Below, piece after piece: positions 35,222-53,401 of a stretch of DNA of 64,000 nt (the first letter of the stretch is position 1; every line of letters starts with the position of its first letter). The notes under the pieces were generated by a model. That model was not told the DNA's origin. It made no database searches and was given only the letters and a program-made list of their open reading frames with translations. The position numbers and the translations under genes were made by a program. This stretch comes from Candidatus Daviesbacteria bacterium (GTDB lineage: Bacteria; Patescibacteriota; Microgenomatia; Daviesbacterales; UBA10151): assembly GCA_016184225.1 (NCBI GenBank), contig JACPDA010000004.1:70800-134799 (forward strand). The letters are read 5' to 3'.

Positions 35222-35959
35222 CTACCGAGCCAAAGTTAGGGCCCAGACTTTTTTGGCTCCGTTTCTTTTCAGCACATAAGCGCATTCTCTAAGGGTTGAA
35301 CCGGTGGTCCAGACGTCATCGATAAGAAGGGTATAGGGTACAGGGTTTAGGGTATAGTCGGGAGAAATCTCAAAAGCATCTTTGATGTTTTGATGACGGC
35401 CAAAACCTTTTAATTTTACCTGGGACTTGGTATAACGAGTGCGTTTTAAACCGTCACAGTAGGCTAAACCTATTTTTTTGGATAAAATTTGTCCAATGAG
35501 TGAAGACTGGTTAAAACCCCTGTCATTACCCCTCCACCAGTGCAGTGGTACAGGGATAATAGTCCATCCTACTCCCTTATCCTTACTAATCTGATCTAAA
35601 ACAAACGGTTGATATTTAACCCAATATTCCACCAGGATATCCACCAAAGTTTCCACCAAACCACTAACCCTGCCATATTTCAACTGTTTAATAGCCTCCC
35701 TTAACGAACCTTGATAGATCCCTAAACTCCACAGTCCATCTAAACCAAACTTTCTTTTGCAAATCGGGTGAGTTTGACCTCCAACAGCCAGCTTTTCACA
35801 CTTGGGACAAACCAAATCTGTTTGCAAGATATTAGAAATGCAATCTTTACAAAAGTAAGTATCTAATTTCTTACAACCAACACACCTTTTGGGGAATAAA
35901 AGGTCCAATAAAAAGTTCATAGTTCGTAGTTCAGAGTTTATAGTAGAACAACTAATCAC
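35222..35959 (-). CDS. comFC: ComF family protein (double zinc ribbon + phosphoribosyltransferase domain)
   Basis: CxxC...CxxC pairs at the N-terminus; PRTase motif LLIDDVWTTGSTL. Confidence 0.75.
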   Translation of the reverse strand: MISCSTINSELRTMNFLLDLLFPKRCVGCKKLDTYFCKDCISNILQTDLVCPKCEKLAVGGQTHPICKRKFGLDGLWSLGIYQGSLREAIKQLKYGRVSGLVETLVDILVEYWVKYQPFVLDQISKDKGVGWTIIPVPLHWWRGNDRGFNQSSLIGQILSKKIGLAYCDGLKRTRYTKSQVKLKGFGRHQNIKDAFEISPDYTLNPVPYTLLIDDVWTTGSTLRECAYVLKRNGAKKVWALTLAR

Positions 35960-35971
35960 TAATAACTACCC

Positions 35972-36002
35972 ACTAATCACTAAAAAACCCGCCGGAAAGC
36001 GG
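35972..36002 (-). terminator. rho-independent terminator after ssrA
   Basis: Minus strand reads AAAACCCGCTTTCCGGCGGGTTTTTT: a GC stem followed by a U-tract. Confidence 0.55.
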
Positions 36003-36010
36003 GTTTTTAA

Positions 36011-36425
36011 TGGTGGAGATGTCGGCTGTGAGCCGAGTCCAAAATTGTGACTAAAAAAACTTCTACAAGCTTAGCTAATTAATTTTTATTCATTAGTTGT
36101 AACCAATTAGCAGGAAAACTAATGAATGATCAAACTTATCTTTAAGTTAATACTGATCGATCAAAATTGTATTAACAGCATCCTGACTGGGTACATACTT
36201 TAGGTTCTAGCCAGAAAAAGAATTCCTAAAATAGATGCTTTAAGCTACTGCAAATCTGGGAGCGTAAGCTGAACCAAAAAGGTCAGCTACGATACCAGCA
36301 GCCATTGCTTTGGCATCACGGACAAGTTTATTGCCGTTTGTGTTTTGAAACAATATTTAACGCTTAATGTTTCCTAAGCGGCTTGCAGTTTTTAAAGAGC
36401 AATCCTGTCGAAACTATACATCCCC
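36011..36425 (-). ncRNA. ssrA: tmRNA (ssrA), about 415 nt
   Basis: 5' end GGGGATGTATAGTTTCGACAGGATTGC (canonical GGGGCUGAUUCUGGAUUCGACGGGAUUUGCG); 3' end ...TCGG-CTCACAG-CCGA-CATCTCC-A-CCA; adjacent to smpB; open tag frame ending ...YAPRFAVA-TAA. Confidence 0.65.
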
Positions 36426-36463
36426 AGGACTGTATATTACCACAACTTAAAGCTAAAAGCAAA

Positions 36464-36910
36464 TTACTCCTTCCCTCTTAACTCCTGCTCCACTCTGCGG
36501 GCATGGTCTTTTTCTTTAAGGATCTTCCTATGGTCAAATTCTTTCTTAGATTTGGCCAAGCCTACTTCTACCTTAAACCGGTTATTTTTCTCATACATAG
36601 ATACCGGCACTAAAGTCACACTTTTCCCGGAGACTTTTCCAATCAATGAGTTAATTTGATCTTTATGAAGCAATAACTTCCTGGACCTTTGGGCATCATA
36701 TTCTTTATCCGCAGCTTGATTATACCGGGGGATATTGGCATTTATCAAAAACGCTTCCCCATTCAGCACCCTGATATGGCTCTCTCCCAGATCTAATCTG
36801 CCGGCCCTGATGGATTTGACTTCAGCACCTGAAAGCACTATCCCAGCCTCTATATGTTCGAGAATGTGATAATTATGAAGGGCTTTTTTGTTAATAATGC
36901 GCATAGTCAT
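36464..36910 (-). CDS. smpB: SsrA-binding protein
   Basis: ...LSGAEVKSIRAGRLDLGESHIRV... with the C-terminal basic tail. Confidence 0.9.
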   Translation of the reverse strand: MTMRIINKKALHNYHILEHIEAGIVLSGAEVKSIRAGRLDLGESHIRVLNGEAFLINANIPRYNQAADKEYDAQRSRKLLLHKDQINSLIGKVSGKSVTLVPVSMYEKNNRFKVEVGLAKSKKEFDHRKILKEKDHARRVEQELRGKE

Positions 36911-36984
36911 CAGTCTTCAGCTTTCAGCTATCAGACTTGTTTTATTATACCAGTCTGATAGCTGACGACTGATAGCTGACGACT
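36907..36984. repeat. TCAG/CTGA-rich palindromic intergenic repeat (copy 2 of 3), spanning exactly from the upstream stop codon to the smpB start codon
   Basis: cagctatcagact / agtctgatagctg form a perfect 13-bp inverted repeat around the loop tgttttattatac; extended imperfect arms. Confidence 0.5.
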
Positions 36985-38827
36985 ATTTCAAGTCTGCTTG
37001 AAATATCTTACTTCCCTCCAGAAGATATACTTTCTTCCCTTTCTCATCAACCACCAAATCCGTGGCTGTGGCAAACTTATTGCCAGTAATTTGCCCTTTG
37101 TAGCTGCCTGTTTTGGTTAAAATCAACAGCCGGGAATTGCCGGAATCCAAAAGGTATAAATTATCTACGTCTGATGAAGTAAACAAACTTTTTGGGTCTT
37201 TAACCCCTGAGGGAAGTCCCGCATAGGAAAAATTGTCCTTATCCCCTTTGGTAAACCTTAAAATCTCTCCCCCGCTCTTGAGCACATAAACAGAGGACTC
37301 AATCTGCATCCTTAAGGCATTACTAAAATCAGCCGTAGCACCCTTACTTAAATATTCCCTTTTATCAGAATAGCCATCAGATGTAGCGACATATTTCCAA
37401 ATCTGTCCGGAATTCAAAAGGTAAACATTGCTGCCAAAGCCATAAAGGTCTTTAATTTCTCCCCAACCACTATCCTGTTTAGCAACAGTGCTCAGTTTGG
37501 AATTTGTGGTATCAATTCTTAAAATCCCCTTATCTACCGAATAAATAAAGGCCAGTCCGCCGTTTAATGAGGCAAAACTGGCTTCGCCTAGTTGTTCTGA
37601 CCCTGCCAAAATCTGGTTGCTCTTTTTCGCTATATCCACCACTGCTAAAGTCTTAACAGCCGGGTCCAGAAGCAGTAGTTTATCCCCCGACAGGCTCATC
37701 TGGGTAGCGCGGAAGTTTTTCTTAACTAAGTCCATATCCAAAAATAGCGGAAAATCAGAAACAACAGACTCTTGTAAAATCGCGGAGGATTCCTGTTCTA
37801 TTTGATTTTTAAAGTTTTGGGCCTCTCCGTCATTTGGCTTTAAAGTTAAGGCAGATTTTACCTTGTCTTTGGCCGAATCGAGCTTCTTTTTGGCTTCAAG
37901 AGGATTTAAACTGGTTAATCCTTTAGCAGCATTAAAATCATCCTTTGCCTCTTGCAATGTTTGGATAAACTGCAACGCCTTAGCCCGGTCACGGCCGGAC
38001 TTATACTGATACCCAACACCCAAGGCAATAATGATAATTAAGACAACCGCCACTACTAACCTCCCCCTGCCACTTCTGGGAAAATGTGTTCCAATCTTCT
38101 TGAGCAAATTCAACACCTGATTTAAAATATCTTTAAAAACTAAAACCCGCGATTTTTTTGGAAAATCTTCACCAATTTCTTGATCTGTTTGAACTGTTTG
38201 ACCATTATCTTCCGAAGGAAGAGGGGAAATTTCCAAATTCTCTCCGCCAGCTGGCGGACTAATTTCCACAATCAAACCAGCTAAGCTTTCGTTCTCTGCG
38301 CTCGAAGCGCCAATTTTACTCCCCAGTTCTTCTTCGAATGTTTCTATAGGCAAATTTAAAGATTTCTCAAGTTCGTCCCCTAAAAGGGTTATTAAGCTTC
38401 TGGTAGAAAGCAGTATTTTATCCCCATCCTGCAAAAATCCGGAAATCAGTTGTGAGGGTGTACCGACTGACAAAAGGGCTGATAGCGTATCCGCTCGTTT
38501 TAGGTAAACTTCAACATTGCCTTTACCGATAAGATAGAGTGCCTTCCCGGAAATAGCTGCCAAACACAAATCAAATTCAGCTCCCTCCGGAATTTTTTTC
38601 TCTGCTTCCTTAAAAGTGGCATTTAATTTCTCAGCCATTGTCCCTTCAAACTCAAAATAGAAATCTTCCAGCTCGGATAAAATTTGCCTGCCGGAAGTAA
38701 AAGCATCGTCGGAGGTAAGCTCTAAAACCGCCAGCAGCGAGTTGTCGTCTCCCCTAATGGAGGATGCTACCTGGGCGGCTTTTTGATCGGTATTTAAGCC
38801 AATAACTTGAGCTATTTTAAGCTTCAT
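36983..38827 (-). CDS. hypothetical membrane protein (N-terminal cytoplasmic domain, one TM, C-terminal repeat-rich extracellular domain)
   Basis: 614 aa; TM VVAVVLIIIIALGVGY; no catalytic motifs recognised. Confidence 0.35.
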   Translation of the reverse strand: MKLKIAQVIGLNTDQKAAQVASSIRGDDNSLLAVLELTSDDAFTSGRQILSELEDFYFEFEGTMAEKLNATFKEAEKKIPEGAEFDLCLAAISGKALYLIGKGNVEVYLKRADTLSALLSVGTPSQLISGFLQDGDKILLSTRSLITLLGDELEKSLNLPIETFEEELGSKIGASSAENESLAGLIVEISPPAGGENLEISPLPSEDNGQTVQTDQEIGEDFPKKSRVLVFKDILNQVLNLLKKIGTHFPRSGRGRLVVAVVLIIIIALGVGYQYKSGRDRAKALQFIQTLQEAKDDFNAAKGLTSLNPLEAKKKLDSAKDKVKSALTLKPNDGEAQNFKNQIEQESSAILQESVVSDFPLFLDMDLVKKNFRATQMSLSGDKLLLLDPAVKTLAVVDIAKKSNQILAGSEQLGEASFASLNGGLAFIYSVDKGILRIDTTNSKLSTVAKQDSGWGEIKDLYGFGSNVYLLNSGQIWKYVATSDGYSDKREYLSKGATADFSNALRMQIESSVYVLKSGGEILRFTKGDKDNFSYAGLPSGVKDPKSLFTSSDVDNLYLLDSGNSRLLILTKTGSYKGQITGNKFATATDLVVDEKGKKVYLLEGSKIFQADLK

Positions 38828-38840
38828 CTACACCCTTTCT

Positions 38841-39092
38841 CTAAAGTATTCCAAAAGCCAAAATAATTAATCCTACGGCAAAACCGGCATGTACGATAGA
38901 AAAAGCCTTAAGATAGGGGGAAACTTTGGTAATTAGAGTTTTACTCATTAAATCCACCTGTCTAATCACTATCAAAGCAAATATAGCGTAAAACGCCAAA
39001 ATTATCAAAATTGCAATTTTTGCAAACATCAAGACTATCTCAAATTCAAACAGACTAGTCTGGATGGTGGTAGGCATCTCTTCCTCTCCCAT
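38841..39092 (-). CDS. small 2-TM membrane protein
   Basis: 83 aa; hydrophobic. Confidence 0.3.
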   Translation of the reverse strand: MGEEEMPTTIQTSLFEFEIVLMFAKIAILIILAFYAIFALIVIRQVDLMSKTLITKVSPYLKAFSIVHAGFAVGLIILAFGIL

Positions 39093-39672
39093 AAATCTTA
39101 TGAGCTTCGTCTAAGATAAAATCCGCCACATGGTGCGGTCTTGATACCGAATGAAAATCAATGTTTCTGGTGGCTCCGGCTGTTTGGATAAAAACATTGC
39201 CGTAGTGAAAAATAGAGTTTAAGATACCGCCCATGGAAGATGAGGTATCTTCTATGTTTCTAAGGGGAGCTACATCAATATTTTTAAATAAAAGTGAGTG
39301 GAAATCCACATCAATGATATTTTTCTCGGTCACAATGTAAACATTAAAATACCAATGCAAAAAACCTTCAAAGGTAATTATTAAAACCAAAAGATAGTTA
39401 ATAATTAAAATCATTACAATAAAGGTTTGCGGAATAGTAGATAAGTTAAAATTGAAAAACCCTAAGATTTTCGGGACAAAAAACGGTCCCAAAAAAACTA
39501 CAATAGCCGCAGTAATCCAGCCTAAATTGGTAATTGGATGAGCCCGGAGTAAAAGAAGCACCTTCTCGTCAGGATCCTGGCCTTCAAAACAGAAATCTGT
39601 CGGATGCTCTAGGTAGGACGGGAACATTAAGGCAAGTATAGCACTTTTTGAGAGTCTAGTCGCTAGAGTCAA
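39055..39672 (-). CDS. membrane protein with bacterial PH (YdbT/DUF304-like) domain; likely internal start
   Basis: two TM helices followed by ...YFNVYIVTEKNIIDVDFHSLLFKNID... Confidence 0.45.
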   Translation of the reverse strand: MTLATRLSKSAILALMFPSYLEHPTDFCFEGQDPDEKVLLLLRAHPITNLGWITAAIVVFLGPFFVPKILGFFNFNLSTIPQTFIVMILIINYLLVLIITFEGFLHWYFNVYIVTEKNIIDVDFHSLLFKNIDVAPLRNIEDTSSSMGGILNSIFHYGNVFIQTAGATRNIDFHSVSRPHHVADFILDEAHKIYGRGRDAYHHPD

Positions 39673-39690
39673 GAATCAAGAATCAAGAAT
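39651..39690. repeat. CTAGAGTCAAGAGTC-family repeat followed by (AATCAAG)x3
   Basis: gagagtctagtcgctagagtcaagaatcaagaatcaagaat. Confidence 0.4.
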
Positions 39691-41363
39691 TATTTTTTCT
39701 CTATATTAAAGAAAGCAAAGCCGCTTTGAGGGATTGACAACCTACCCGGGGCGCGGATATTAAAGGCAGTCTTAAACTCCGAGCCGGAAAGTCTTACCTC
39801 CCCTTTGTCTGTTTGGAAAACAACCTCGCTGGTCGTTCCGTTCCCCTGCACCACCGTCACCGAACTTACGCTAGACGGTCCTCCGGCCTTCTCCCGCAAC
39901 TCGGCATGAGAGTAGGGGTTTCCTCCCCAGCAAGAAGTAGTAACAGGTGTTACCCGATCATCTCTGTATTTGGCCGCGTTAATAATATCCGCCACCTCTT
40001 CCCCTGAAAGCCAGGGGTTTGATCTTCCGCATTTATCACTTGACGGGCTATAGCCTTGTGTGTACCAAGCTTTATAGACCCAGGGGGACCCGCCTGCCTT
40101 ATCGTATGATTTGTCAACAAAACTGGATCCTCCGGAACCATCCGTCGTGTCCCAACCCATGGTAGTAGTAAACCCCCCGTGGGTTGAGGCATAATAAGTC
40201 ACCACATCTTCAATCACTTGTCCCCTGGTAGCATTCACCGCATCTTTCCAGGCCTGCGGAGGACTGTCTGACTTGGATTTAGAAAACACCTGGCAAGCTT
40301 CGGTGGTACAAATTGATTGGCCGTTTTGTTTATACCGGAAAGCATAAGTTCTGGCTGCTATGGCTTGAGCTTTAAGCGCTTCAGCATGCCAGTTTGAAGG
40401 CATCTCAGCTATGCCGTACAGATATTTTTCTTCAAAATTCATTGATCCGTACCCCGACACATTAATATCCCCTCCGGTATCTTTACCGACCGGCTCTTTA
40501 CCGTAGTAAGCCCGCAAAATTGCTTTGTAATCCTGACCTGACTGGGCTCTGCCCCTGGCTCCGTATTGACTCATCCCTTTTCTGTGGGTATAGCCACCAA
40601 AGGAAAAGACTGCAAAAGATCCCGAGGGAGCGGCTTCCCTAAAACCTTTAATGGAAGCATTGTAATCGTCTGCCAACTCGCTATCTCCGATACTGGCAGT
40701 AAACTGACCTGACCTGGCTGCTAAGATTTCCTGTTGTTTGGCAGAAAGCTCGGCAATTTTGCCTGATAAGTCAGATTGATATGCTTTAGCTTTTTTAATC
40801 TCTCCGCCCAAAAAGCCGGCATTCTTGTCTACCTGCTCTTGAAAAACGGCTAACTTAGCTTTGTCTTTTTCTAGGTTTTCTTTTTGGGTCAGCAAGTCTA
40901 CCACCTCGGCTGTAATTGAGGTAATAATTTGGCGGTCTTCCCGGGTGACGGATTGGCGGTAGGATAGCTCCCTGAATAAATCACCCGAGTGGACTGAGGA
41001 TAAAATGACCAGTAGTGGATCAGTCAGATATGAACGGATATAATAGGCCTTAACCCGCTGTTCCAGGAGCGCTTGCTGCAGGGCCAACTTATCTTCCCTG
41101 ATATCCAAATCTTTTTGTTTTTGCCTGATCTTAGCCGAAAGATTGTCTAAATTGGCTTGGATTTGGGCCAGCTGCAGTTTTAGGGAATTTAGTTGGCCTT
41201 CTAAAGGTTTAGTAGCTTTTACAGACAGCTCCCGGGCCTTATTTAGCTCATCGATCTGTTTTTGTAAATCTTCTATTTCACCAGCAAAGGTAGGGTATAG
41301 GGTATAGGGTATAGGGTATAGGAAAACAGATACTAAAAATAAAAAAAGAATAATTCTTTTCAT
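39690..41363 (-). CDS. SpoIID/LytB-domain peptidoglycan-remodelling protein with N-terminal coiled coil
   Basis: signal peptide; long coiled-coil region; SpoIID block ...GGYTHRKGMSQYGARGRA... and ICTTEACQVF. Confidence 0.65.
   Translation of the reverse strand: MKRIILFLFLVSVFLYPIPYTLYPTFAGEIEDLQKQIDELNKARELSVKATKPLEGQLNSLKLQLAQIQANLDNLSAKIRQKQKDLDIREDKLALQQALLEQRVKAYYIRSYLTDPLLVILSSVHSGDLFRELSYRQSVTREDRQIITSITAEVVDLLTQKENLEKDKAKLAVFQEQVDKNAGFLGGEIKKAKAYQSDLSGKIAELSAKQQEILAARSGQFTASIGDSELADDYNASIKGFREAAPSGSFAVFSFGGYTHRKGMSQYGARGRAQSGQDYKAILRAYYGKEPVGKDTGGDINVSGYGSMNFEEKYLYGIAEMPSNWHAEALKAQAIAARTYAFRYKQNGQSICTTEACQVFSKSKSDSPPQAWKDAVNATRGQVIEDVVTYYASTHGGFTTTMGWDTTDGSGGSSFVDKSYDKAGGSPWVYKAWYTQGYSPSSDKCGRSNPWLSGEEVADIINAAKYRDDRVTPVTTSCWGGNPYSHAELREKAGGPSSVSSVTVVQGNGTTSEVVFQTDKGEVRLSGSEFKTAFNIRAPGRLSIPQSGFAFFNIEKK
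41293..41316 (+). repeat. (GGGTATA)n heptamer repeat forming a canonical G3N4G3N4G3N4G3 quadruplex motif; encodes PYTLYPIPYTLYP in the signal peptide of the minus-strand gene
   Basis: GGGTATAGGGTATAGGGTATAGGG. Confidence 0.6.
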
Positions 41364-41415
41364 AAAGTGTCTTTAATTTTAGCAAAACTTATGCTGGCAT
41401 CGGCTTTCTAATAAA

Positions 41416-41439
41416 CCCTACCCCCTAATCCCTAGACCC
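41416..41439 (-). repeat. CCCTAA-type telomere-like heptamer repeat (G4 motif on minus strand) at the 3' end of a four-helix-bundle gene
   Basis: CCCTACCCCCTAATCCCTAGACCCT. Confidence 0.55.
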
Positions 41440-41795
41440 TAACTCTTTAAGCTACTAATAAGTTTATTTAACATCTTTTGAACTTCTGTAAGTAGATTAC
41501 TAATATCTTCGAAATCTTGAACATTTAAAAAATTTAATTCCTTGGCAATCAGTACTTGTGTTTCTAATTCAGCACCAGAAGCGAATGCAGTTCTTAGAAA
41601 CTGAAGGTATTCTTGCCTATAACCCCGTGAGTAACCTTCAGCTATATTCGAAGGGATTGATACCGCACATCGGCGCATTTGCGAAACTAAACCATATAAT
41701 TCTGACTTTGGAAATTTATTGGTGATTCTGAATATTTTAATTGATAAGTCAAAAGCTTTCTGCCAAACTGTCAGCTGTTGGTAGGAAGTTAGCAT
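41439..41795 (-). CDS. four-helix-bundle protein (23S rRNA IVS / Avd-like family)
   Basis: ...FPKSELYGLVSQMRRCAVSIPSNIAEGYSR... Confidence 0.7.
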   Translation of the reverse strand: MLTSYQQLTVWQKAFDLSIKIFRITNKFPKSELYGLVSQMRRCAVSIPSNIAEGYSRGYRQEYLQFLRTAFASGAELETQVLIAKELNFLNVQDFEDISNLLTEVQKMLNKLISSLKS

Positions 41796-41814
41796 AATCT
41801 TATTTTACACTAAA

Positions 41815-41838
41815 CCCTAACCCCTAGTCCCTAAACCC
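41815..41838 (-). repeat. CCCTAAA-type telomere-like repeat (G4 motif on minus strand) in the spacer between the four-helix-bundle gene and the first pilin-domain gene
   Basis: CCCTAACCCCTAGTCCCTAAACCCTAAAA. Confidence 0.55.
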
Positions 41839-41861
41839 TAAAATGTGCTAATCTGAAATCA

Positions 41862-43031
41862 ATGTCCAAAATTTTTTCTTATAAACTAATTGTTGCAATC
41901 TTCTTTCTGTTTTTTGCATTCTCTTTGCTACCAGAGAGTACGATGGCTACCTTAAACGATTGCAGCTTTACATTCGACCCACCACAACCTAATACCTATA
42001 TGAAAGATCTGACCATCACTGTATCAAGCGCAGGACTACCCTCAAGCGGAGGTAACTATTTAATGGTAGTACAAGATCCACGTGATCATTGTGCTTATAC
42101 ATGGTCACGTGGATCGCTACCAAGTTATATTTTTGGAGGGATGGATGGAAACTGTTTCGGCTCGTATAGAGGTTGGCAAAACAGAGATTACCAGGTTTAT
42201 CTTTTCAATGGTGACGTAGATTATAAATCCGGTGCATTCGGATTTATCGGAAGAACAGATTTAAAACAAGCGATTTGCGTGGGGTCATTTCAAGTTGCAT
42301 TGAAATCAATACAAGACAGTTGCAAAGCTATCATTACTACAAAACCAATTGACCCCAATACTACAGTTCAACTAGAAGTAGAAAATATTCTACCAGACAA
42401 ATATAAAATTATTGTTGAGCCCAGAACCGCTGCTGCTACCCCTAAAAAAGAGTTCGAGGAAAAAATTGATACTTCCACTGCTCCCGCAAGATTCAATCTA
42501 GATACTTTTATTCCGGGCACTTATAGCGTTTCAATTTATAAAGATAGCAAGCTTCAGTGCGCTCAAGAATCTTTTCAGGTCGGCCCGATGGGAAGCGGAG
42601 AAGGCGGCAGAATAGTAGCTTATGCAGGAATAGATCAATGTAAACAAAAAGATGTGGCTTGTTCTCTTGCTGGAGGACAGCCAGTTACGGGTTGCAATGA
42701 TGCAGAGGTACCAGATCCAAATGATCCAAATAAAACCATACCTAACCCTAACCCGGGTATTGCTACTGCCATTGGCTGCATTCATACTAACCCGGTAGAA
42801 TTTACTAAAGACATCATGAAGTTTGTGCTGGGTATTTCCGGAGGCTTAGCATTTTTAATGATGCTTTTGGGGGCATTTCAAATACTGTCCTCTGCTGATA
42901 ATCCTGATACCTTGCATGCCGGCAGGGAAAGGTTAACCAGCGCAGTGATCGGCCTCCTGATAGTCATTTTTGCTATTTTACTATTGCAAATTATTGGAGT
43001 TGGTATACTGGATATACCTGGATTTAAATAG
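41862..43031 (+). CDS. secreted protein with large N-terminal extracellular domain fused to a C-terminal VirB2/TrbC-like pilin domain
   Basis: signal peptide; the C-terminus GISGGLAFLMMLLGAFQILSSADNPDTLHAGRERLTSAVIGLLIVIFAILLL matches the pilin paralogs downstream. Confidence 0.45.
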   Translation: MSKIFSYKLIVAIFFLFFAFSLLPESTMATLNDCSFTFDPPQPNTYMKDLTITVSSAGLPSSGGNYLMVVQDPRDHCAYTWSRGSLPSYIFGGMDGNCFGSYRGWQNRDYQVYLFNGDVDYKSGAFGFIGRTDLKQAICVGSFQVALKSIQDSCKAIITTKPIDPNTTVQLEVENILPDKYKIIVEPRTAAATPKKEFEEKIDTSTAPARFNLDTFIPGTYSVSIYKDSKLQCAQESFQVGPMGSGEGGRIVAYAGIDQCKQKDVACSLAGGQPVTGCNDAEVPDPNDPNKTIPNPNPGIATAIGCIHTNPVEFTKDIMKFVLGISGGLAFLMMLLGAFQILSSADNPDTLHAGRERLTSAVIGLLIVIFAILLLQIIGVGILDIPGFK

Positions 43032-43060
43032 AGTCAAGAGTCTAGAATCTAGAGTCTAGG
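43029..43060. repeat. CTAGAGTCAAGAGTC-family repeat filling the stop-to-start spacer upstream of the four-helix-bundle gene
   Basis: tagagtcaagagtctagaatctagagtctagg; an inverted partner lies at 43418-43448. Confidence 0.45.
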
Positions 43061-43063
43061 AAA

Positions 43064-43420
43064 ATGAGAAACAATAAAGGTTACAGAAAATTAATTGCTT
43101 GGCAGAAAGGTAACCTACTAGCTCACTTAATTTATGATGTCACAGCTAAATTCCCTAGAAATGAGCTTTTCGGATTAACTTCTCAGATGCGTCGGGCTGT
43201 TTTATCTGTTTGCGCGAATATAGCCGAGGGGTATAGCAGAAGTGGTTTAAAAGATCGCAAACATTTCTATCAAATGGCGGTTGCTTCTTTAACAGAACTG
43301 GAGTTCTTTATTGACTTTGCTTCTGAAAGAAAGTTTATAAACTCTTTCGATTATGAGAGAATATTAGATGTCCATACAGAAACAGCTAGAGTTCTAAGTG
43401 GTCTATTGAAATCCACTTGA
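43064..43420 (+). CDS. four-helix-bundle protein (23S rRNA IVS / Avd-like family), flanked by inverted repeats
   Basis: ...FPRNELFGLTSQMRRAVLSVCANIAEGYSR... Confidence 0.7.
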   Translation: MRNNKGYRKLIAWQKGNLLAHLIYDVTAKFPRNELFGLTSQMRRAVLSVCANIAEGYSRSGLKDRKHFYQMAVASLTELEFFIDFASERKFINSFDYERILDVHTETARVLSGLLKST

Positions 43421-43448
43421 CTCTAGACTCTAGCGACTAGTCACTAAC
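43418..43448. repeat. CTAGAGTCAAGAGTC-family repeat (inverted copy) filling the spacer downstream of the four-helix-bundle gene
   Basis: tgactctagactctagcgactagtcactaac. Confidence 0.45.
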
Positions 43449-43449
43449 T

Positions 43450-43749: not shown

Positions 43750-43753
43750 AAAA

Positions 43754-43777
43754 GGGTACAGGGTACAGGGTACAGGG
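43754..43777 (+). repeat. (GGGTACA)n heptamer repeat, canonical G4 motif, in the intergenic spacer between pilin genes
   Basis: GGGTACAGGGTACAGGGTACAGGG. Confidence 0.6.
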
Positions 43778-43796
43778 TACAGTTAAGAAAGCTTTT

Positions 43797-45164: not shown

Positions 45165-45181
45165 TTGATCCCGATTAAATC
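45165..45181. repeat. perfect palindrome TCCCGATTAAATCGGGA (hairpin); the same core recurs at 53283-53297
   Basis: cccgattaaatcggg occurs in the spacers at 45.17 kb and 53.29 kb. Confidence 0.4.
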
Positions 45182-45220
45182 GGGATTGATCTTCAAAACT
45201 ATTAGTGGTAATTTTAAAGG

Positions 45221-45559: not shown

Positions 45560-45600
45560 GGAGTTGCAAAGATAGTTTGATTTAGGTTAGTGTTATAAGT

Positions 45601-47373
45601 ATGCTGCCAAAGTTTATAGTTTATAGTTTATCGTTTATCGTTTTGATACTATTTACCATCCATCCTGCTCTTGCCCAAACCCCTTCGACAAGCTCAGGGC
45701 ACGCTGCTATCCCTTCTGCTTCTTCCTCTACACCCTATACCCTATACCCTATACCCTCATCTGTCTCCCCCACTTCTCCCCTTTATACCGACTTGTTGGT
45801 AAATAACCTCTTCCACTCTTTCTCCTGCCTGGCAATCGGCCAATCTGTTATTGGCCAGCCGTGTTTAACCTACCAGGTAACTAAAAATGCCCAGGGTGCC
45901 ATCCAAAGCATACCGGTACTTTCTTCAATAAACACCTCAGGCGGAACGCTGGGGGCTGTCACCTCTGTCATAGGGATGCTCTATACTAACCCGCCGGTCA
46001 GGACTGCTGATTATCTGGCCAGTGTCGGGACTGATTTGGGAATTGTCAAGCAAGTCCATGCCCAAGGAGTAGGGGGTTCAGGAGCTGCCGTACTAAACCC
46101 CATCTTAAAGCTTTGGCAAGTTTCCAGAAATATCTCCTATGTCATATTAATCATTATCTTTTTGATCATTGGCCTGATGGTCATGTTCAGGAATAAAATC
46201 AATCCTCAAACCGTTATTACCGCCCAAACTGCCCTGCCTGGATTAGTCATCGGCCTGGTGATGATTACCTTCTCCTACTTCTTTGCCGGTCTGATTTCGG
46301 ATTCTGCCTTTATTGGTACAAATTTAGTTGGTTATTATTTTTCTGCCGCTCAAAAACAATCTACCCCTCAAAATGTCGTTGAAAGTATGCAAAATCAAAA
46401 TGTGTTAAGTATTTTCAGTCCCTTTATCGGCATCGTTAATAAAGAAAACGCGGCAGACCTGATCAGTTCCATATGGACGAGTTTAAACCAAGATACTCGA
46501 AATTTTCTTACCGGCATTTCGGCGTTTCTGGTGGGTCAAATGACTTCACCAGTTGGTAGTTTATTCGGACCGGTCGGGCAGATGGTGGTAGGTTTTGGAA
46601 CATCAACCGTGACATTGGCAAACCCAACAGGAATCGTTGGTGTTCTACTGTGGATAATGGCTACCCTAATTTTGCTTTACTCCATGTTTAAATTGTTACT
46701 ACGCCTGATTAATAACTATCTCACTATTATCTTTCTGACATTTACTGCCCCTTTTCAACTTTTAATCGCTGCTTTACCGGGTAGGCAGGGCATGGCCACT
46801 AATTGGATCTTAAATATGCTGGCCAATATTTTGGCCTTTCCGGCTGTTTTGGCTGTGCTTTATTTTGTGGCTTATCTGATGGGGCCGGTTTTTATGAATC
46901 TACATTGTACCACTCCCTGTCCCTTTAAAATTACACAAGTTAACCAAATAAACAGTAATGATCTTGTGCCGAATGCATATGCAGAAGGGGCTTCAATTGT
47001 TGATAGCCAGACTTTTCCTTTATTTGGAGGTATGAACTTGGATTTCATGAGACTGCTTTTGGCATTTGGAGCTTTAATAGCATTACCATCAATACCGGAC
47101 GTACTGGGTCGGGCCATTGGTAAAATGGGTGAAACTGGACAGCTGATCGGCCAGGAAATTGGCGGTAGTGTCGGCCAAGGCAGAGGTTATTTTGGCCAAG
47201 CCAGCCGGGCACCGGGAGCCCTAGCCCAACAGGTTGGGCCAGTTATAAACCAACCTGGGTATATGATGGAGGGTGGCAAAGTAGTCAGAGTCTACGATCC
47301 TAGATTTGGTGGAAGTTTTGGAATATTCAGTAAATTTGGAAGTTGGCGTAGGCCAAAGGGAACTCCTCCGTAA
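45601..47373 (+). CDS. polytopic membrane protein, TrbL/VirB6-like
   Basis: 590 aa with at least 6 TM helices, directly following the pilin array; the N-terminal region contains TPYTLYPIP encoded by (CCCTATA)n. Confidence 0.45.
   Translation: MLPKFIVYSLSFIVLILFTIHPALAQTPSTSSGHAAIPSASSSTPYTLYPIPSSVSPTSPLYTDLLVNNLFHSFSCLAIGQSVIGQPCLTYQVTKNAQGAIQSIPVLSSINTSGGTLGAVTSVIGMLYTNPPVRTADYLASVGTDLGIVKQVHAQGVGGSGAAVLNPILKLWQVSRNISYVILIIIFLIIGLMVMFRNKINPQTVITAQTALPGLVIGLVMITFSYFFAGLISDSAFIGTNLVGYYFSAAQKQSTPQNVVESMQNQNVLSIFSPFIGIVNKENAADLISSIWTSLNQDTRNFLTGISAFLVGQMTSPVGSLFGPVGQMVVGFGTSTVTLANPTGIVGVLLWIMATLILLYSMFKLLLRLINNYLTIIFLTFTAPFQLLIAALPGRQGMATNWILNMLANILAFPAVLAVLYFVAYLMGPVFMNLHCTTPCPFKITQVNQINSNDLVPNAYAEGASIVDSQTFPLFGGMNLDFMRLLLAFGALIALPSIPDVLGRAIGKMGETGQLIGQEIGGSVGQGRGYFGQASRAPGALAQQVGPVINQPGYMMEGGKVVRVYDPRFGGSFGIFSKFGSWRRPKGTPP
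45733..45756 (-). repeat. (CCCTATA)n heptamer repeat, canonical G4 motif on the minus strand, inside the TrbL-like gene
   Basis: CCCTATACCCTATACCCTATACCC. Confidence 0.6.
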
Positions 47374-47383
47374 GCTTGATTAG

Positions 47384-51283: not shown

Positions 51284-51495
51284 AACTTCCTTTCTTCAGG
51301 AAATTCTACGGCTCACTCCAGCATAGAACCTCCAAAACTAAATGTCAAAACTCAAATCTCAAAAGTCAAAACTATAACTCAAATCTTAAAACTAAAAGTA
51401 GTTTACACTGAGAGATGCGTAAGTGCTTGATTAAATGCTGAGAAAATCCTGACGGATTAGTTCGTAGTAGGTAGTTAGTAGCAAGCAATGAGGGA

Positions 51496-52152
51496 TTATT
51501 TTTTAACCACACTCATCCCCAATTGCTTTGCTTTTTTTTTATAAAACTCTTTTAATTCCTTTAGCTCAAGCGGCTTTAGCATTTGGGGTAATGTTTCAAA
51601 AGTATCTGCCTTGAGAAAATCTATCCCCACCAAAAAAGGATCTGTTTTAAGCCTAAATTTAACTTCTGCCCCCCTCATTAAATCCCAAATCGTAAATTTT
51701 TGCAGCAGAAAATATAAATCCACAAAATCTTTTACCTCTGTCCTTTGCATGATGGTGCTAATTTTATTGACGGCGATGTCGAACAAGCTATCAATCGCAA
51801 CTAATTCAATCTTTGGCCCCGCTTCTATCCTTTTGTATGGATAATAACCAAAGTCTACTTTTAGCTTTTCCCCGTCGGCAAACTCTAAAAGATAAATTTT
51901 TACCACTTCCTGCTCTTTCAAAAGGAACTTAAAATTATTTTTTTTACCCCAGCCGGTTAATAAATTCAGAATGGATAAGTTGTCGAATGTCTCCTCTGAA
52001 AAGAAATCCAGATCTTCGGATAATCTGTGTTGCAGATAAACAGCAGAGAGGGCTGTACCGCCGGTAAAATAGAAATTCTCTTTTAAATAATCACTGCTTC
52101 TAAACTCATCAAAAATAATTCTTTGCTTGACCGTCAGATTCACGTTCCCCAT
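51496..52152 (-). CDS. AbiEii/AbiGii-family nucleotidyltransferase toxin (type IV TA)
   Basis: ...FTGGTALSAVYLQHRLSEDLDFFSEE... matches the AbiEii GGTAL...RxSxDxDF signature. Confidence 0.6.
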   Translation of the reverse strand: MGNVNLTVKQRIIFDEFRSSDYLKENFYFTGGTALSAVYLQHRLSEDLDFFSEETFDNLSILNLLTGWGKKNNFKFLLKEQEVVKIYLLEFADGEKLKVDFGYYPYKRIEAGPKIELVAIDSLFDIAVNKISTIMQRTEVKDFVDLYFLLQKFTIWDLMRGAEVKFRLKTDPFLVGIDFLKADTFETLPQMLKPLELKELKEFYKKKAKQLGMSVVKK

Positions 52153-52340
52153 ATTAAAAGTTTCATCATTTTTTTCCGCAAAGGGTCAAGGTGAAGTTTG
52201 TCCCAATTTTTTTTGACTTCGGATAAACTGATCTTTTCCCCTTTGTCCGGACCAAAATTAATCATTCTTTCCAAAATCAGCAGCCTGCCGCTTTTGGTTT
52301 TCTTTAATTTATTGATATCATAATCCCAAATGAATGGCAT
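52140..52340 (-). CDS. small hypothetical protein upstream of the AbiEii gene (possible cognate antitoxin)
   Basis: 66 aa; overlaps the AbiEii start by 13 nt. Confidence 0.25.
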   Translation of the reverse strand: MPFIWDYDINKLKKTKSGRLLILERMINFGPDKGEKISLSEVKKNWDKLHLDPLRKKMMKLLIWGT

Positions 52341-52367
52341 AGTTAAATTATACCACTTATCCGCCCT

Positions 52368-53258
52368 TTACCCGCATCTTTTAACTGCCCTGCAATTGGG
52401 ACAACTACCACCCACCTTAACCACACAATTGATCTCTTTCTCGCAAATGGGGCAGACCCTGCAATAATCAGGGTCTCTGCTGATTGAACTTGCCACATAA
52501 GTGAGGGCATTTTCAGAAAATACCCGTAAAGCAGTTCTGCCGGTGGAATTTCTGGGAGGACAACTACCAGGATAAGACCCTATCATTTGTCTGGCCGCCA
52601 TTTGAGCTTCTTGGTAAGTAATTGGCTTTGTAGAAAAGAAAAGTTGTTTTTGAATGGTTCTGGCCTGTTCTAGAGCCTTTTTTTTGGCTACTTTATCCTC
52701 CCCTTGTCTGATACCTTCCCATAACTTAGGGTCATAAATTAATCTCTCTAAAATCTCGATCCAGGATCTATCTTTAGTATCTAAAACAAGCGGAGTAGCA
52801 CGAACCTGATCTAAATCAGTAAAAATAGGCTTATTCTTAGTAAAACTGGTTAAATTCCAAGCTAATACCATGCACTCACGATCACTAAAATCAAACAAAA
52901 TTGCCCGATTAAACAGTCTTTTTACTCCATTTGCGTACTCTATTTCACTAACAATTATTTTTGTGACAGGGTATACTCCCGGGGAAGGCGGGCTTACCCA
53001 AACACTTATTCCTTTATCACTGCGGGCCGCCCACTGCTCTGTAGCAACAACTGCCTGGTATTCCAATTGTCCCAAATGGCTGGTTCTATCTTCCACTGTA
53101 TCCCTAATCCGGCAATGAGCCGTAGGAGAAAACAGTTCGCTGTCTGCGATGGTGTAGTGGTAAGGATCAGGAATCCTATTGGTTTCCAAGCTTTGCGAGG
53201 CAAGTTCTTCGACAAATTGCTCAGACGGGGTAATATCTATTCGTTCTAATACTGGCAT
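52368..53258 (-). CDS. hypothetical protein with C-terminal Cys4 zinc ribbon
   Basis: ...CRVCPICEKEINCVVKVGGSCPNCRAV... Confidence 0.35.
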   Translation of the reverse strand: MPVLERIDITPSEQFVEELASQSLETNRIPDPYHYTIADSELFSPTAHCRIRDTVEDRTSHLGQLEYQAVVATEQWAARSDKGISVWVSPPSPGVYPVTKIIVSEIEYANGVKRLFNRAILFDFSDRECMVLAWNLTSFTKNKPIFTDLDQVRATPLVLDTKDRSWIEILERLIYDPKLWEGIRQGEDKVAKKKALEQARTIQKQLFFSTKPITYQEAQMAARQMIGSYPGSCPPRNSTGRTALRVFSENALTYVASSISRDPDYCRVCPICEKEINCVVKVGGSCPNCRAVKRCG

Positions 53259-53377
53259 ATTGCTCCTGCACGGGATTTAACCCCGATTAAATCGGGGGTG
53301 GTCGGTCTCCGGACTTATGATAGGGTTTAGGGTATAGTGACTAGGGTATAGTAAAACATTTTTAGTTTCTACCTAAA

Positions 53378-53401
53378 CCCTAACCCCTAAACCCTGTACC
53401 C
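53378..53401 (-). repeat. CCCTAA-type telomere-like repeat (G4 motif) in the divergent promoter region; the G-rich partner repeats at 53321-53346 form an inverted pair
   Basis: CCCTAACCCCTAAACCCTGTACCC; upstream lies gatagggtttagggtatagtgactagggtatag. Confidence 0.55.

Follow-up and report, generated by a model that had tools for sequence, protein, structure and literature searches.

In a 64,000-nucleotide stretch of DNA from Candidatus Daviesbacteria, a member of the candidate phyla radiation or CPR (hereafter the window), seven G-quadruplex (G4)-type motifs found around a T4SS/pilin locus are merely the G-rich members of a far larger set of ~31-base, period-7 repeats, and form no special G4 class. 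The strongest association of these arrays, which is new to our knowledge, is with genes encoding four helix bundle (4HB) proteins, which are bracketed by inverted arrays. We put at roughly 0.55 the probability that the arrays represent arms, hairpins and solo copies of a 4HB cassette resembling rRNA intervening sequences (IVSs), with G4 potential as a by-product; the array-flanked genes are more indicative of a mobile cassette than of a pilin switch of the Neisseria kind. The original prediction, that G4 motifs might promote pilin variation, is confirmed in its observation of the motifs and partly supported in its overall interpretation.

Heptanucleotide arrays in the window

A search for G3+N1-7 x4 motifs recovered all seven of the predicted G3N4 motifs (Table 1), the first of which starts 1 nt later than had been given; an eighth, unrelated motif lies at 3076-3098. 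Such motifs are hardly expected by chance, as had been claimed, with eight loci in the window versus a mean of 0.57 and a maximum of 3 in 200 dinucleotide-preserving shuffles, and the GC content of the window is 40.6% rather than the ~38% stated for the genome. The telomere-like heptamers (CCCTAAA/GGGTATA) are non-random and fit the textbook G4 formula; what is not supported is G4 formation as a selected property, since non-G heptamers share the same length mode and orthologous sites carry units that cannot form G4. These orthologous sites in relatives hold AATTTTC, GTAAACT, AAAGTTA and similar A/T-rich units, and the units differ between orthologs at the SpoIID signal peptide, the pil2-pil3 spacer and the ComF segment.

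Approximately 25 period-7 arrays are present in the window, with unrelated units (CTGATAG, TAGAGTC, AGTTTAT and others); beyond those of the seven motifs, ~16 arrays that have no G-tracts had been omitted from the original prediction. The claimed concentration in the T4SS/pilin locus is borne out by the 17 of 25 arrays that lie within 35-54 kb (binomial p=8.5e-5). Period 7 is dominant, with eight strict arrays versus none or one at other periods, and across the window and 79 syntenic comparison loci from Daviesbacteria/Microgenomates, TRF rows number 330 at period 7 and 94 at period 14 versus 52 at period 6 and 67 at period 8, with 139 distinct heptamer units. Copy number has a mode of 4.2-4.9 units (~31 nt) and a cut-off at 5, common to G3 and non-G3 units, so that the four-unit preference is not attributable to G4 formation; at periods other than 7, array lengths decay monotonically. 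In the relatives, array density is 2.3-fold higher on the pilin side. Densities throughout refer to the 64-kb window and to 21-kb loci picked around the same locus.

The arrays are confined to sites where ~31 additional or substituted bases are tolerated: spacers, codons of signal peptides or linkers (in frame) and, in a cobalamin riboswitch, the variable stem. Near-copies recur within one genome, and unit families recur at unrelated sites within a genome, orthologous sites following the families of each genome. All G-family arrays can be aligned in a single register, with four CCC tracts, the same imperfections and a 5′ flank rich in T, a pattern that suggests copying rather than independent slippage. 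Inverted pairs of the same unit make up 16% of neighbouring pairs versus 3.2% of random pairs, and their gaps are bimodal, at 0-100 nt (hairpins) and 300-500 nt (mostly around a 4HB gene). A short array related to the AGAGTCA/AGAATCA family is also found at 19285-19300.

Table 1. Arrays, hairpins and 4HB genes of the window, with the G4-type motifs they contain.
Position	Strand	Feature	Basis
84..515	-	Third cassette: 4HB_c gene 109-486, period-8 arms 84-111 and 492-515	TRF, NCBIfam
17325..17395	-	TCAGCTW/CTGAYAG-family hairpin, dnaG-rpoD interval	TRF, fold
21809..21837		Degenerate G-family array, coding region outside pilin locus	TRF, register alignment
35328..35357	-	G-family array in ComF-like gene, encoding DYTLNPVPYTL; motif 35329-35352 (G strand)	TRF
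36916..36984	-	Hairpin of inverted non-G arrays TCAGCTW/CTGAYAG, filling g614-smpB spacer	Fold
39665..39690		AGAGTCA/AGAATCA array, SpoIID-g205 junction	Same family as 4HB_b arms
41291..41322	-	Perfect (CCCTATA)4.6 array, SpoIID-like signal peptide; motif 41293-41316 (G strand)	TRF
41412..41442		Extra C-strand array, 4HB_a stop to SpoIID-like start; motif 41416-41439 (C strand)	TRF, 4.4 copies
41439..41795	-	4HB_a gene (PF05635 23S_rRNA_IVP / TIGR02436 four helix bundle protein)	Pfam, NCBIfam
41810..41842	-	4HB_a 5′ arm, upstream, G-rich in gene sense; motif 41815-41838 (C strand)	TRF, 4.7 copies
43029..43059	+	4HB_b 5′ arm, TAGAGTC x4.4	TRF
43064..43420	+	4HB_b gene (PF05635/TIGR02436), between pil1 and pil2	Pfam, NCBIfam
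43419..43433	+	4HB_b 3′ arm, GACTCTA x2.1, inverted complement of 43029-43059	TRF
43753..43782	+	Solo perfect (AGGGTAC)4.3 array, pil2-pil3 spacer; motif 43754-43777 (G strand)	TRF
45611..45643	+	(AGTTTAT)4.7 array without G-tract, within signal peptide of 590-aa protein	TRF
45728..45757	+	(CCCTATA)4.3 array, S/T/P linker of 590-aa protein (TPYTLYPIPS); motif 45733-45756 (C strand)	TRF
53320..53404	-	Inverted G-family pair 53320-53351 / 53372-53404; motif 53378-53401 (C strand)	Riboswitch hairpin
60714..60779	-	TCAGCTW/CTGAYAG-family hairpin, between HJ-resolvase-like gene and dnaN	TRF, fold

Four helix bundle genes and their arms

The three PF05635/TIGR02436 genes of the window are each bracketed by inverted arrays. 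Of the 29 4HB genes in the CPR loci, 14 have arrays within 60 nt of both ends, 10 of one end and 5 of neither, as against 31, 219 and 1198 of 1448 other ORFs; at least one flanking array therefore accompanies 24/29 4HB genes versus 17% of other ORFs. When 4HB genes from the CPR loci, metagenomes, cyanobacterial plasmids and Riemerella were taken together, arms were found at 110 of 118, with period 7 (86), 8 (22) or 9 (2). The arms are inverted in 60/67 cases (median identity 0.85 in inverted versus 0.50 in direct orientation) and their polarity is conserved, the upstream arm being G-rich in 61/77 and the downstream arm C-rich in 77/93; in the 4HB_c cassette, too, the G-rich arm is upstream in gene sense. 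Heptamer-type arms are seen at 4HB genes in Nostoc, Calothrix, Pseudanabaena, Stanieria, Geminocystis and Riemerella, and Xanthomonas repeat #15 (GGGAATC; Rehm et al., 2015, PMC4692102) abuts the 4HB gene XCC0516 (PDB 2GSC). Arm units are common only to 4HB proteins with identities of at least 60-75% and are unrelated at 45-60% identity, which indicates that the arms turn over.

The 4HB_a protein (PF05635, 4.2e-39; TIGR02436, 2.2e-38) has 85% amino acid identity to a copy at another position in a relative, L047. Its 5′ arm conforms to the polarity rule derived from the 118 cassettes and recurs in the L047 cassette with 100% conservation and in the same register; the 3′ partner arm, C-rich in sense, is the array of the SpoIID-like signal peptide. 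Window positions 41291-41842 share 82-88% DNA identity with L047 7326-7798, which lies between pil2 and pil3, and the array, start codon and hydrophobic codons at the SpoIID-like 5′ end are 88% identical to the 5′ end of L047 pil3, the SpoIID proteins of the two genomes being merely 49% identical. The pil2-pil3 spacer that houses the cassette in L047 holds a solo array in the window (43753-43782). Cassettes of this type are reversed in L005, L078 and L028, and in L046 the same site holds a different 4HB clade. Judged from these alignments, the cassette is shown to have moved, with its arms, between positions in the pilin locus, and some recombination at arrays is plausible because the array-bounded cassette differs in position and orientation among relatives. 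The 4HB cassette carries no transposase or recombinase.

Hairpins, coding regions and a riboswitch

Both inverted pairs noted originally, 41291/41412 and 53320/53372, are genuine and fold as strong hairpins. In the former, the extra array at 41412-41442, which the L047 cassette lacks, pairs with the array at 41291-41322 in the region of the RBS and start codon of SpoIID (41288-41436, minus strand: -43.7 kcal/mol, z=-4.3). The array hairpins of the window are strong, with z from -3.5 to -8.7, and include the non-G hairpin at 36916-36984 (-39 kcal/mol, z=-8.7). They also display insertion polymorphism, the hairpin-bearing spacers of the window measuring 0-14 nt in relatives, as is the case for the g614-smpB spacer in L002, L005, L012 and L047.

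The 53320-53404 pair (-33 to -37 kcal/mol, z about -3.5 to -4) falls in the variable insert of a full-length cobalamin riboswitch (53283-53504, minus strand; Rfam RF00174, 54.9 bits) that leads a 296-aa ORF, and constitutes its peripheral hairpin. The motif that had been placed in a divergent promoter here is real, although it is part of this riboswitch stem and not simply promoter. Arrays inside genes are in frame, as had been proposed, in the SpoIID-like gene, the 590-aa protein gene and the ComF-like gene. The SpoIID-like signal peptide is encoded through the array (MKRIILFLFLVSVFLYPIPYTLYPTFA, followed by GEIEDL). In the 590-aa protein the array at 45728-45757 lies past the signal peptide, in the linker directly after it (...SSSTPYTLYPIPSS), and the label TrbL-like for that protein has no supporting Pfam or NCBIfam match. 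The array in the ComF-like gene substitutes, at equal length, for a variable segment preceding the PRPP motif.

A proposed cassette origin for the arrays

PF05635 ORFs were first found in 23S rRNA intervening sequences, and the stems of rRNA IVSs are cut by RNase III. It is proposed that the seven motifs belong to a GGGTWYA/TRWACCC family of lineage-wide heptanucleotide arrays, typically of four units plus a few bases, whose characteristic setting would be as inverted terminal arms of small cassettes carrying a PF05635/TIGR02436 gene. The arrays at 41810-41842 and 41291-41322 would be the 4HB_a arms, 41412 an extra arm, 53320-53404 a short ORF-less hairpin, and those at 43753, 45728, 35328 and 21809 solo copies. 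Pairing between complementary arms would most likely take place in the transcript, as it does in rRNA IVSs; the insert would thereby remain a structural unit of its own and do no harm to the operon or RNA that hosts it. G4 potential would be a side effect of one particular unit sequence. Arrays would be concentrated in the T4SS-like/pilin locus because it contains many short genes and spacers under loose constraint, as well as two cassettes, and not on account of pilin variation.

The three cassettes cover just ~7 of the ~25 window arrays, most of which are not beside a 4HB gene; these outlying arrays would derive from cassettes, and the reverse order, with cassettes landing in or recombining at pre-existing arrays, is possible. 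Arm mismatches comprise 57 G-U and 51 A-C, and the absence of bias gives no specific support for a sense-strand RNA stem; DNA-level structure, or no selection on the arms, is possible. Since 0/20 of the metagenomic cassettes checked lie in an rRNA gene, the IVS parallel is drawn solely from the ORF family and the inverted-arm architecture.

Alternative explanations

The arrays might be putative binding sites of the 4HB proteins, a reading that is doubtful in its own right and compatible with a cassette origin, as its molecular mechanism. Much like TRAP, a pentamer would contact five cores on RNA or ssDNA at a spacing of 7 (or 8-9) nt, which would account for the ~4.4-unit length; contacts with the arms of its own gene would serve in autoregulation or packaging, and arrays elsewhere would make up a regulon. 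The sharp mode of 30-32 nt (four units plus core) and the cut-off at five units, whatever the sequence, agree with this, as do the PDB relatives 2GSC and 2RLD with five chains each, although five chains in a crystal entry do not prove a pentamer. A pentamer that binds nucleic acid is known in the DGR protein bAvd. Arrays often start and finish with TAG as the core, the trinucleotide showing the highest enrichment is TAG/CTA (38% versus 16%) and 4-5 TAG cores occur in 52/91 arrays, yet TAG is found in only 38% of units. The three window 4HB paralogs have their own unit families, two of which also occur elsewhere, and the recurrence of families at unrelated sites, with orthologous sites matching the genome's own families, is consistent with this reading; against it, unrelated units at 45-60% 4HB identity would require very fast co-evolution of specificity, and none of the window 4HB genes is cognate to the CTGAYAG hairpins.

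Neutral microsatellites, produced by slippage with an intrinsic 7-nt preference and leaving the 4HB link and inverted pairs as by-products, are already disfavoured and unlikely. Heptamers are over-represented in several bacterial groups (PMC4692102, PMC4679880), and the tolerant positions of the arrays and the dispensability of the hairpins in relatives accord with neutrality. Slippage, however, predicts monotonic decay of copy number instead of a peak at 4.2-4.9 units that breaks off at 5, and unrelated units per site instead of recurring families with imperfections shared in register; nor does it predict inverted complementary partners at five times the random rate, or the 48% versus 2% both-ends association with 4HB genes across phyla and its fixed polarity.

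Heptamer SSRs are reportedly drivers of phase variation in Haemophilus, and gain or loss of one 7-nt unit, which is not a multiple of three, would shift the frame and toggle T4SS-associated surface proteins; the 5′ coding arrays are indeed near perfect (41291-41322, SpoIID-like, 100%; 45728-45757, 590-aa protein, 95%). Such switching is very unlikely, as all orthologs examined stay in frame through the array, arrays of just 4-5 units have little mutability, assemblies from three independent read sets match the window at 100% identity as far as the array, and most arrays are intergenic or in hairpins.

The six pilin genes encode PF18895 VirB2-type paralogs of 20-50% amino acid identity and hardly any similarity at the nucleotide level, and every one of them has conserved orthologs in the other genomes; the only DNA segment common to paralogs is a 60-nt stretch (82% identity), and the six show no expressed-locus/silent-copy arrangement. 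With paralogs this old, diverged and individually conserved, and without silent copies, Neisseria pilE-like pilin variation is not supported; the hairpin-paired arrays and the motif in a riboswitch stem likewise speak against a pilE/pilS-like system. That G-rich arrays fold into G4 and stimulate pilin-array recombination or antigenic variation as at pilE is accordingly highly improbable, for all the excess of canonical motifs, the G4 formed in vitro by similar GGGNATC repeats (PMC4692102), the clustering at the pilin locus and the variable pil3-pil4 gene content and cassette positions among genomes, as non-G units share length, positions and pairing, orthologous pilin spacers hold A/T-rich units, 4/7 motifs have a complementary partner nearby that favours duplex or hairpin, and the mRNA of coding-region arrays bears the C strand.

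Comparison with known systems

The Neisseria pilE system resembles the window in having a G4-type motif adjoining pilin genes, but the window pilins are VirB2-type rather than type IV, neither silent pilS copies nor shared recombination tracts are present, and the G4 is not conserved in relatives. Closer parallels are the GGGNATC / GGGGAYT repeats of Xanthomonas and Nostoc, which likewise have a 7-nt unit with a G3 tract, strongly favour lengths of about four units and lie for the most part in intergenic regions flanked by co-oriented ORFs, often as convergent inverted pairs; whether they are single or paired is conserved, unlike their length and sequence, and the heptamers were not linked there to 4HB genes (Rehm et al., 2015, PMC4692102). 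Here, by contrast, the unit is GGGTWYA, the host belongs to the CPR, the G family is one among many and the four-unit preference extends to non-G units.

Heptamers of the STRR type were reportedly described in cyanobacteria by Mazel et al. in 1990. TAACTGA repeats in Beggiatoaceae, cyanobacteria and Bacteroidetes (MacGregor, 2015, PMC4679880) similarly comprise 2-6 tandem copies, mostly intergenic and often directly upstream of start codons, with some translated inside ORFs, and a 4HB link was not reported for them. Their patchy cross-phylum range overlaps lineages with heptamer-armed 4HB cassettes. TAACTGA is, however, one dominant unit that is nearly always direct, with one inverted case, whereas many units and frequent inverted pairs are found here. 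REP/BIME elements and MITEs are also short, genome-specific, dispersed intergenic palindromes that form hairpins between co-transcribed genes and show presence/absence polymorphism among relatives, but the present elements have tandem-heptamer arms rather than unique palindromes, are without RAYT or transposase, and are associated with a gene for a 4HB protein.

23S rRNA intervening sequences with a PF05635 ORF occur in Leptospira and others. They share with the cassettes a PF05635 ORF bounded by stem-capable inverted repeats, a sporadic distribution suggestive of horizontal movement, and insertion where an extra stem-loop is tolerated, here a riboswitch stem. Intervening sequences of 23S rRNA with such an ORF have been described in CPR bacteria (Tsurumaki et al., 2024, PMC11270868). 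In the present case, the arrays and cassettes are instead located in protein operons, 5′ coding regions and a riboswitch, and the arms are tandem heptamers.

The heptamer-array class

A regular-expression search of the window for G-quadruplex (G4)-type motifs (G3+N1-7, four times) detected eight loci, compared with a mean of 0.57 and a maximum of 3 in 200 dinucleotide-preserving shuffles. The seven motifs of the original prediction are thus real and non-random, although window GC was measured as 40.6% and not the ∼38% that had been claimed. All seven are period-7 tandem arrays of 4.3–4.7 copies, with GGGTATA, GGGTACA or GGGTTTA as the G-strand unit and four G/C tracts per array, and those at 41293, 45733 and 35329 are translated. 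Altogether ∼25 period-7/14 arrays were detected in the window with Tandem Repeats Finder, most of them with units devoid of G tracts (non-G units being CACTTTG, TCAGCTT, CTGATAG, AGAGTCA, AGTTCAT, ACTAATC, AGAATCA, TAGAGTC, AGTTTAT, CAAAACT and CTGACGA). Under a strict lag-identity test the window contains eight period-7 arrays, compared with zero or one for each of the other periods from 4 to 12 and none in shuffles.

Features detected in the window
Feature	Coordinates	Strand	Details
PF05635/TIGR02436 gene	109-486	-	flanked by arrays
PF05635/TIGR02436 gene (4HB_a)	41439-41795	-	flanked by arrays
PF05635/TIGR02436 gene	43064-43420	+	flanked by arrays
G4-type motif	35329-35352	G strand	regular-expression scan
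G4-type motif	41293-41316	G strand	regular-expression scan
G4-type motif	43754-43777	G strand	regular-expression scan
G4-type motif	41416-41439	C strand	regular-expression scan
G4-type motif	41815-41838	C strand	regular-expression scan
G4-type motif	45733-45756	C strand	regular-expression scan
G4-type motif	53378-53401	C strand	regular-expression scan
Eighth G4-type motif	3076-3098		regular-expression scan; unrelated to heptamer set
Hairpin	36908-36990	-	-39 kcal/mol, z=-8.7
Hairpin	17318-17400	-	z=-4.1
Hairpin	60708-60785	-	z=-4.2
Hairpin	53315-53410		z about -3.5 to -4
Hairpin	41288-41436	-	z=-4.3

The SpoIID-like protein places the source organism among relatives of Candidatus Daviesbacteria (Microgenomates/Patescibacteria). 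The comparison set comprised 79 syntenic loci (83-41% identity, 1.19 Mb), all from Daviesbacteria, Microgenomates or Patescibacteria MAGs, in which period 7 contributed 330 rows, period 14 94, period 8 67 and period 6 52. The commonest of the 139 distinct canonical units in these loci are ACCCTAT (GGGTATA), ACTCTAG and AAACCCT. Copy number at period 7 has a distinct mode at 4.2–4.9 units (30–32 nt) with a cut-off at 5, and at other periods the distributions decay monotonically. The mode is evident both in units containing G3/C3 (n = 91, median 4.3) and in units without them (148 non-G arrays fall in the same bins); the possession of four G tracts thus belongs to the class as a whole and provides no evidence for G4 selection. 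G4 formation by the heptamer arrays would appear to be incidental, and G4 motif counts in array-rich genomes should not be taken as a sign of quadruplex function. The G-family arrays of the window have a T-rich 5′ flank and four CCC tracts in a single common register, and share irregular units (TAACCCC); the common register and irregularities fit copying rather than independent slippage.

The arrays are distributed over tolerated sites. They are over-represented in non-coding DNA, frequently as convergent inverted pairs, and their density is higher on the pilin side in relatives as well as in the window (3.45 per 10 kb versus 1.47 elsewhere in the locus in relatives), the pilin side also holding many short genes and spacers together with the four-helix-bundle (4HB) cassettes described below. 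A search of near-identical strains for copy-number variants, such as would switch the reading frame at a phase-variable (SSR contingency) locus, found only three Logan contigs, which match the window at 100% identity and end inside the perfect array; a megablast search of the locus against plasmids returned no match. A telomeric role was rejected because the arrays are internal and 4–5 units long.

No other array in the window is as long as (CAAAACT/CAAATCT) x9.6 at 51333-51397, which separates the start of a 1299-aa gene from a gene for an AbiEii toxin (51496-52152). Arrays of ACTAATC and AGTTCAT (35914-35983) are located directly 3′ of the tmRNA gene (36011-36425, minus strand), which adjoins smpB, and overlap a mechanically called ComF-like ORF start, the true start probably being further downstream.

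Conserved positions and divergent units

Gene order is maintained among relatives (comF-like, smpB, the neighbouring genes g614, g83 and g205, SpoIID-like, the pilin genes pil1 to pil6, and g590, encoding a 590-aa protein), and within this framework the position of the arrays is conserved and their sequence is not. The 5′ end of the SpoIID-like gene carries CCCTATA in the window and locus L005, AATTTTC x4.9 in L001, TGTATTA in L006 and CTACYAA in L009, and the array is absent in L011, L013 and L017. The pil2-pil3 spacer contains GGGTACA in the window and L011, GTAAACT x5 in L003 and A/T-rich units in L001, L002, L006 and L009. Around residue ∼200 of the ComF-like protein, arrays are of the CCCTAWA type in the window, L011, L046 and L047 and of the GACTCTA type in L001 and L009; this array substitutes, at equal length, for a variable stretch preceding the PRPP motif. 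The SpoIID-like arrays are translated within the signal peptide, always ahead of the AxA|DEIEDL cleavage site, and g590 has an AGTTTAT array in its signal peptide and a CCCTATA array in an S/T/P linker. All orthologs examined are in frame through their arrays, and the repeat-encoded peptides in signal peptides (LYPIPYTLYP and similar) are insert-derived.

Hairpins and the cobalamin riboswitch

Inverted pairing of neighbouring arrays greatly exceeds the random expectation: inverted arrays of one unit constitute 47 of 287 neighbouring pairs versus 3.2% of random pairs. The gaps of such pairs are bimodal (0–100 nt and 300–500 nt), and the short-gap pairs fold strongly. Three of the hairpins occur in spacers of housekeeping genes that share an orientation (dnaG-rpoD, g614-smpB and a resolvase-like gene-dnaN), and the g614-smpB spacer is only 0–14 nt long in L002, L005, L012 and L047, indicating that the hairpins are dispensable insertions.

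The motif at 53378, which had been placed in a divergent promoter, belongs to an array pair that sits within a cobalamin riboswitch and so is not simply a promoter element. The riboswitch (RF00174; 53283-53504, minus strand) scores 54.9 bits against a gathering threshold of 31.5 and covers model positions 1-189 of 189 (Rfam); the array pair (53320-53404) fills the variable peripheral insert of the model, such that a riboswitch stem is built from heptamer arrays. The riboswitch leads a 296-aa ORF (52368-53258, minus strand) that has no Pfam or NCBIfam match and may represent a B12-related gene of a CPR bacterium.

Four-helix-bundle cassettes

The three 4HB genes of the window (PF05635/TIGR02436; "23S rRNA intervening-sequence protein") are each bracketed by arrays, here termed arms. 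The window and the 79 syntenic loci contain 30 4HB genes, 29 of them scorable; using a period-7 array within 60 nt of a gene end as the criterion, arrays were found at both ends of 14, at one end of 10 and at neither end of five, compared with 31, 219 and 1198, respectively, of 1448 other ORFs in the same loci. The long-gap (300–500 nt) inverted pairs mostly surround a 4HB gene, and some surround a ∼100-aa pilin gene.

This arrangement extends well beyond CPR bacteria. Matches of a tblastn search of plasmids were nearly all cyanobacterial, plus Riemerella, and in all eight plasmid loci the 4HB gene is bracketed by heptamer arrays, as in Nostoc edaphicum [(AGTAGGG)7.9/(TCCCTAC)4.9], Geminocystis [(AAAAGGG)/(CTTTTCC)] and Riemerella [(GGTTTAA)/(TAAACCT)]. 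Scanning of metagenomes recovered at least 595 relatives, the best 80 of which (GC 29–67%) show the same bracketing, some with period-8/9 arms. With all sets pooled, arms are present at 110 of the 118 4HB genes examined, which span four phyla (period 7, 86; period 8, 22; period 9, two). The arms of a cassette are reverse-complementary to each other in 60/67 cases (median identity 0.85 versus 0.50 for direct orientation), and their polarity is constant with respect to the ORF: upstream arms are G-rich in 61/77 and downstream arms C-rich in 77/93. The association of 4HB genes with arrays therefore crosses phyla and has a fixed polarity. Period-8/9 cassettes (window 84-515, L089, L095, L124, L137 and others) have unit counts resembling those of period-7 cassettes, and it seems that unit number, rather than arm length in bases, is conserved.

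The closest solved structure is Xanthomonas campestris XCC0516 (2GSC, five chains). A GGGAATC repeat (#15) has been listed between bccP (XCC0517) and XCC0516, overlapping the annotated start of the latter (Rehm et al., supplementary table, PMC4692102), although the 4HB family is mentioned neither in that study (Rehm et al., 2015) nor by MacGregor (2015; PMC4679880). Literature searches, mostly outside subscription journals, found no report connecting 4HB genes with heptamer repeats, and the association is apparently undescribed.

Two plasmid cassettes have long heptamer arms, that of a Pseudanabaena plasmid (L082, 490-1063) lying between cas6 and cas4 and that of a Nostoc edaphicum plasmid (L086, 507-997) lying in antisense orientation between the genes for the beta and alpha subunits of ribonucleotide reductase. 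A large clustering study found '23S rRNA IVP' to be CRISPR-array-associated (PMC10910872), which plasmid cassettes at such sites may explain.

Cassette relocation

A single module of the window (41291-41842), made up of the array within the signal peptide of SpoIID, the start codon, the 4HB_a gene and its upstream arm, is 82–88% identical at the DNA level to L047 7326-7798. In L047, however, the module lies between pil2 and pil3, the latter beginning with the repeat-bearing signal peptide (MKKMIIFLFLLFVFLYPIPYTLYPVYA) that also heads the SpoIID-like protein of the window, whereas the SpoIID proteins of the two loci share only 49% identity. A 4HB_a-type cassette lies reversed between pil1 and SpoIID in L005, L078 and L028, where it retains its arm polarity, and L046 has at that site a 4HB gene of another clade (35% identity) between arrays of the same family. 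The cassette has thus relocated within a conserved CPR locus.

The 5′ gene end also appears portable: window 41291-41375 and L047 7326-7410 (88% DNA identity) consist of a start codon, hydrophobic codons and a (CCCTATA)n array, with the translation MKK.II.F...VFLYPIPYTLYP..A. This gene end forms the beginning of the SpoIID-like gene in the window and of the pilin gene pil3 in L047. Variable insertions of 1.3–4.4 kb are present between pil3 and pil4 in several relatives (L003, L005 and L009), where the window has a gap of 7 nt.

Proposed mechanism

It is proposed, at odds of roughly one in five, that PF05635/TIGR02436 proteins constitute, with heptamer (or 8-9-mer) arrays of ∼5 units, a single cis/trans system in CPR bacteria, cyanobacteria, Bacteroidota and Xanthomonas, in which a mobile cassette encodes a putative pentamer binding its own arms and dispersed copies on RNA or ssDNA; this would supply the origin and function of cyanobacterial STRR heptamer repeats, of the Xanthomonas/Nostoc 'G4' repeats and of ORF-bearing rRNA intervening sequences (IVSs). 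Solo arrays and short hairpins probably derive from cassettes, and, as in rRNA IVSs (PMC11270868), the arms may base-pair within the transcript to give a stem of the RNase III type. A wobble test for an RNA stem gave no strand-specific RNA signal, arm mismatches being of the G-U type in 57 cases and the A-C type in 51. A putative pentameric 4HB protein that binds five cores would be an attractive answer to the joint change of both arms, the period of 7 and the ∼4.4-unit length. Co-variation of 4HB clade with arm unit or period was sought as evidence of specific recognition; unit and period are common only to 4HB proteins ≥60–75% identical and are random below this, a pattern indistinguishable from co-inheritance of the cassette. 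The idea that arms serve as three-frame stop insulators was dropped because the frequency of all-frame stops differs neither between strands nor between the upstream and downstream arms.

Other elements in the window

The minus strand carries a group I intron (RF00028, 82 bits) at 14761-15045, flanked (14700-15130) by apparent tRNA halves (…GGTAGAGCGGCTCGCT / …GGTTCCTGGTTCGAATCCAGGTCGAGGAGCCA) with a partial duplicate of the 5′ half upstream; ARAGORN called no tRNA at this site. The gene for a large serine recombinase (518 aa; region 33477-35141) overlaps tRNA-Ser (34967-35052) at its 3′ end, beside a second tRNA-Ser, and a search for an att duplication at tRNA-Ser found none. The adjoining 24–33 kb region has a low GC content (33–37%) and no heptamer arrays, and may therefore be an integrated element.

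Comparison with known systems

The original prediction had likened the motifs to the G4 of Neisseria pilE and proposed a role in pilin recombination or variation, a reading that is largely not supported. Neisseria pilin variation employs an expressed locus and silent partial copies with conserved DNA tracts in common, whereas the present locus, lacking a pilE/pilS layout, has six full-length PF18895 VirB2-type paralogs of 20–50% amino acid identity, each with orthologs in relatives, among which pairwise comparison revealed only one shared stretch (60 nt at 82% identity). Furthermore, the Neisseria G4 has a fixed position upstream of pilE, whereas orthologous spacers here contain non-G heptamers or none.

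The arrays are a CPR instance of the bacterial heptamer-repeat phenomenon. Heptamer tandem repeats of the STRR type have reportedly been catalogued since 1990; the repeat type matches, but the host here is a member of Ca. Daviesbacteria/Microgenomates and not a (heterocystous) cyanobacterium; the heterocystous cyanobacterial origin that the STRR-like repeats had first suggested was rejected on the identity of the relatives. The G4-forming SSRs of Rehm et al. (2015) share with the present arrays a tandem 7-nt unit with a run of at least three G, a non-coding excess, convergent inverted pairs and a preference for about four units (G3/C3 median 4.3), the last also seen in non-G arrays and hence not diagnostic of G4. 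ORF-bearing IVSs likewise have a PF05635/TIGR02436 ORF, present here in three genes, and inverted repeats able to form a stem, as with the inverted arms of the cassettes, but are found in a 23S (or 16S) rRNA gene, whereas the cassettes are located between protein-coding genes. The window contains no rRNA, and none was detected in 20 metagenomic cassette loci by motif scan and Rfam.

Small CPR genomes tolerate dispersed repeats that reach core operons (dnaG-rpoD, smpB, dnaN), a riboswitch and a T4SS-like locus, the latter thought central to the episymbiotic lifestyle of these bacteria. To our knowledge, no gene or mechanism has been attached to the catalogued heptamer repeats (STRR, and the GGGNATC 'G4' and TAACTGA repeats of 2015). 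Bracketing of 110/118 genes, arrays of ∼4.4 units and cassette relocation now provide three ties between such repeats and the 4HB family, a link that opens concrete experimental routes and is worth testing.
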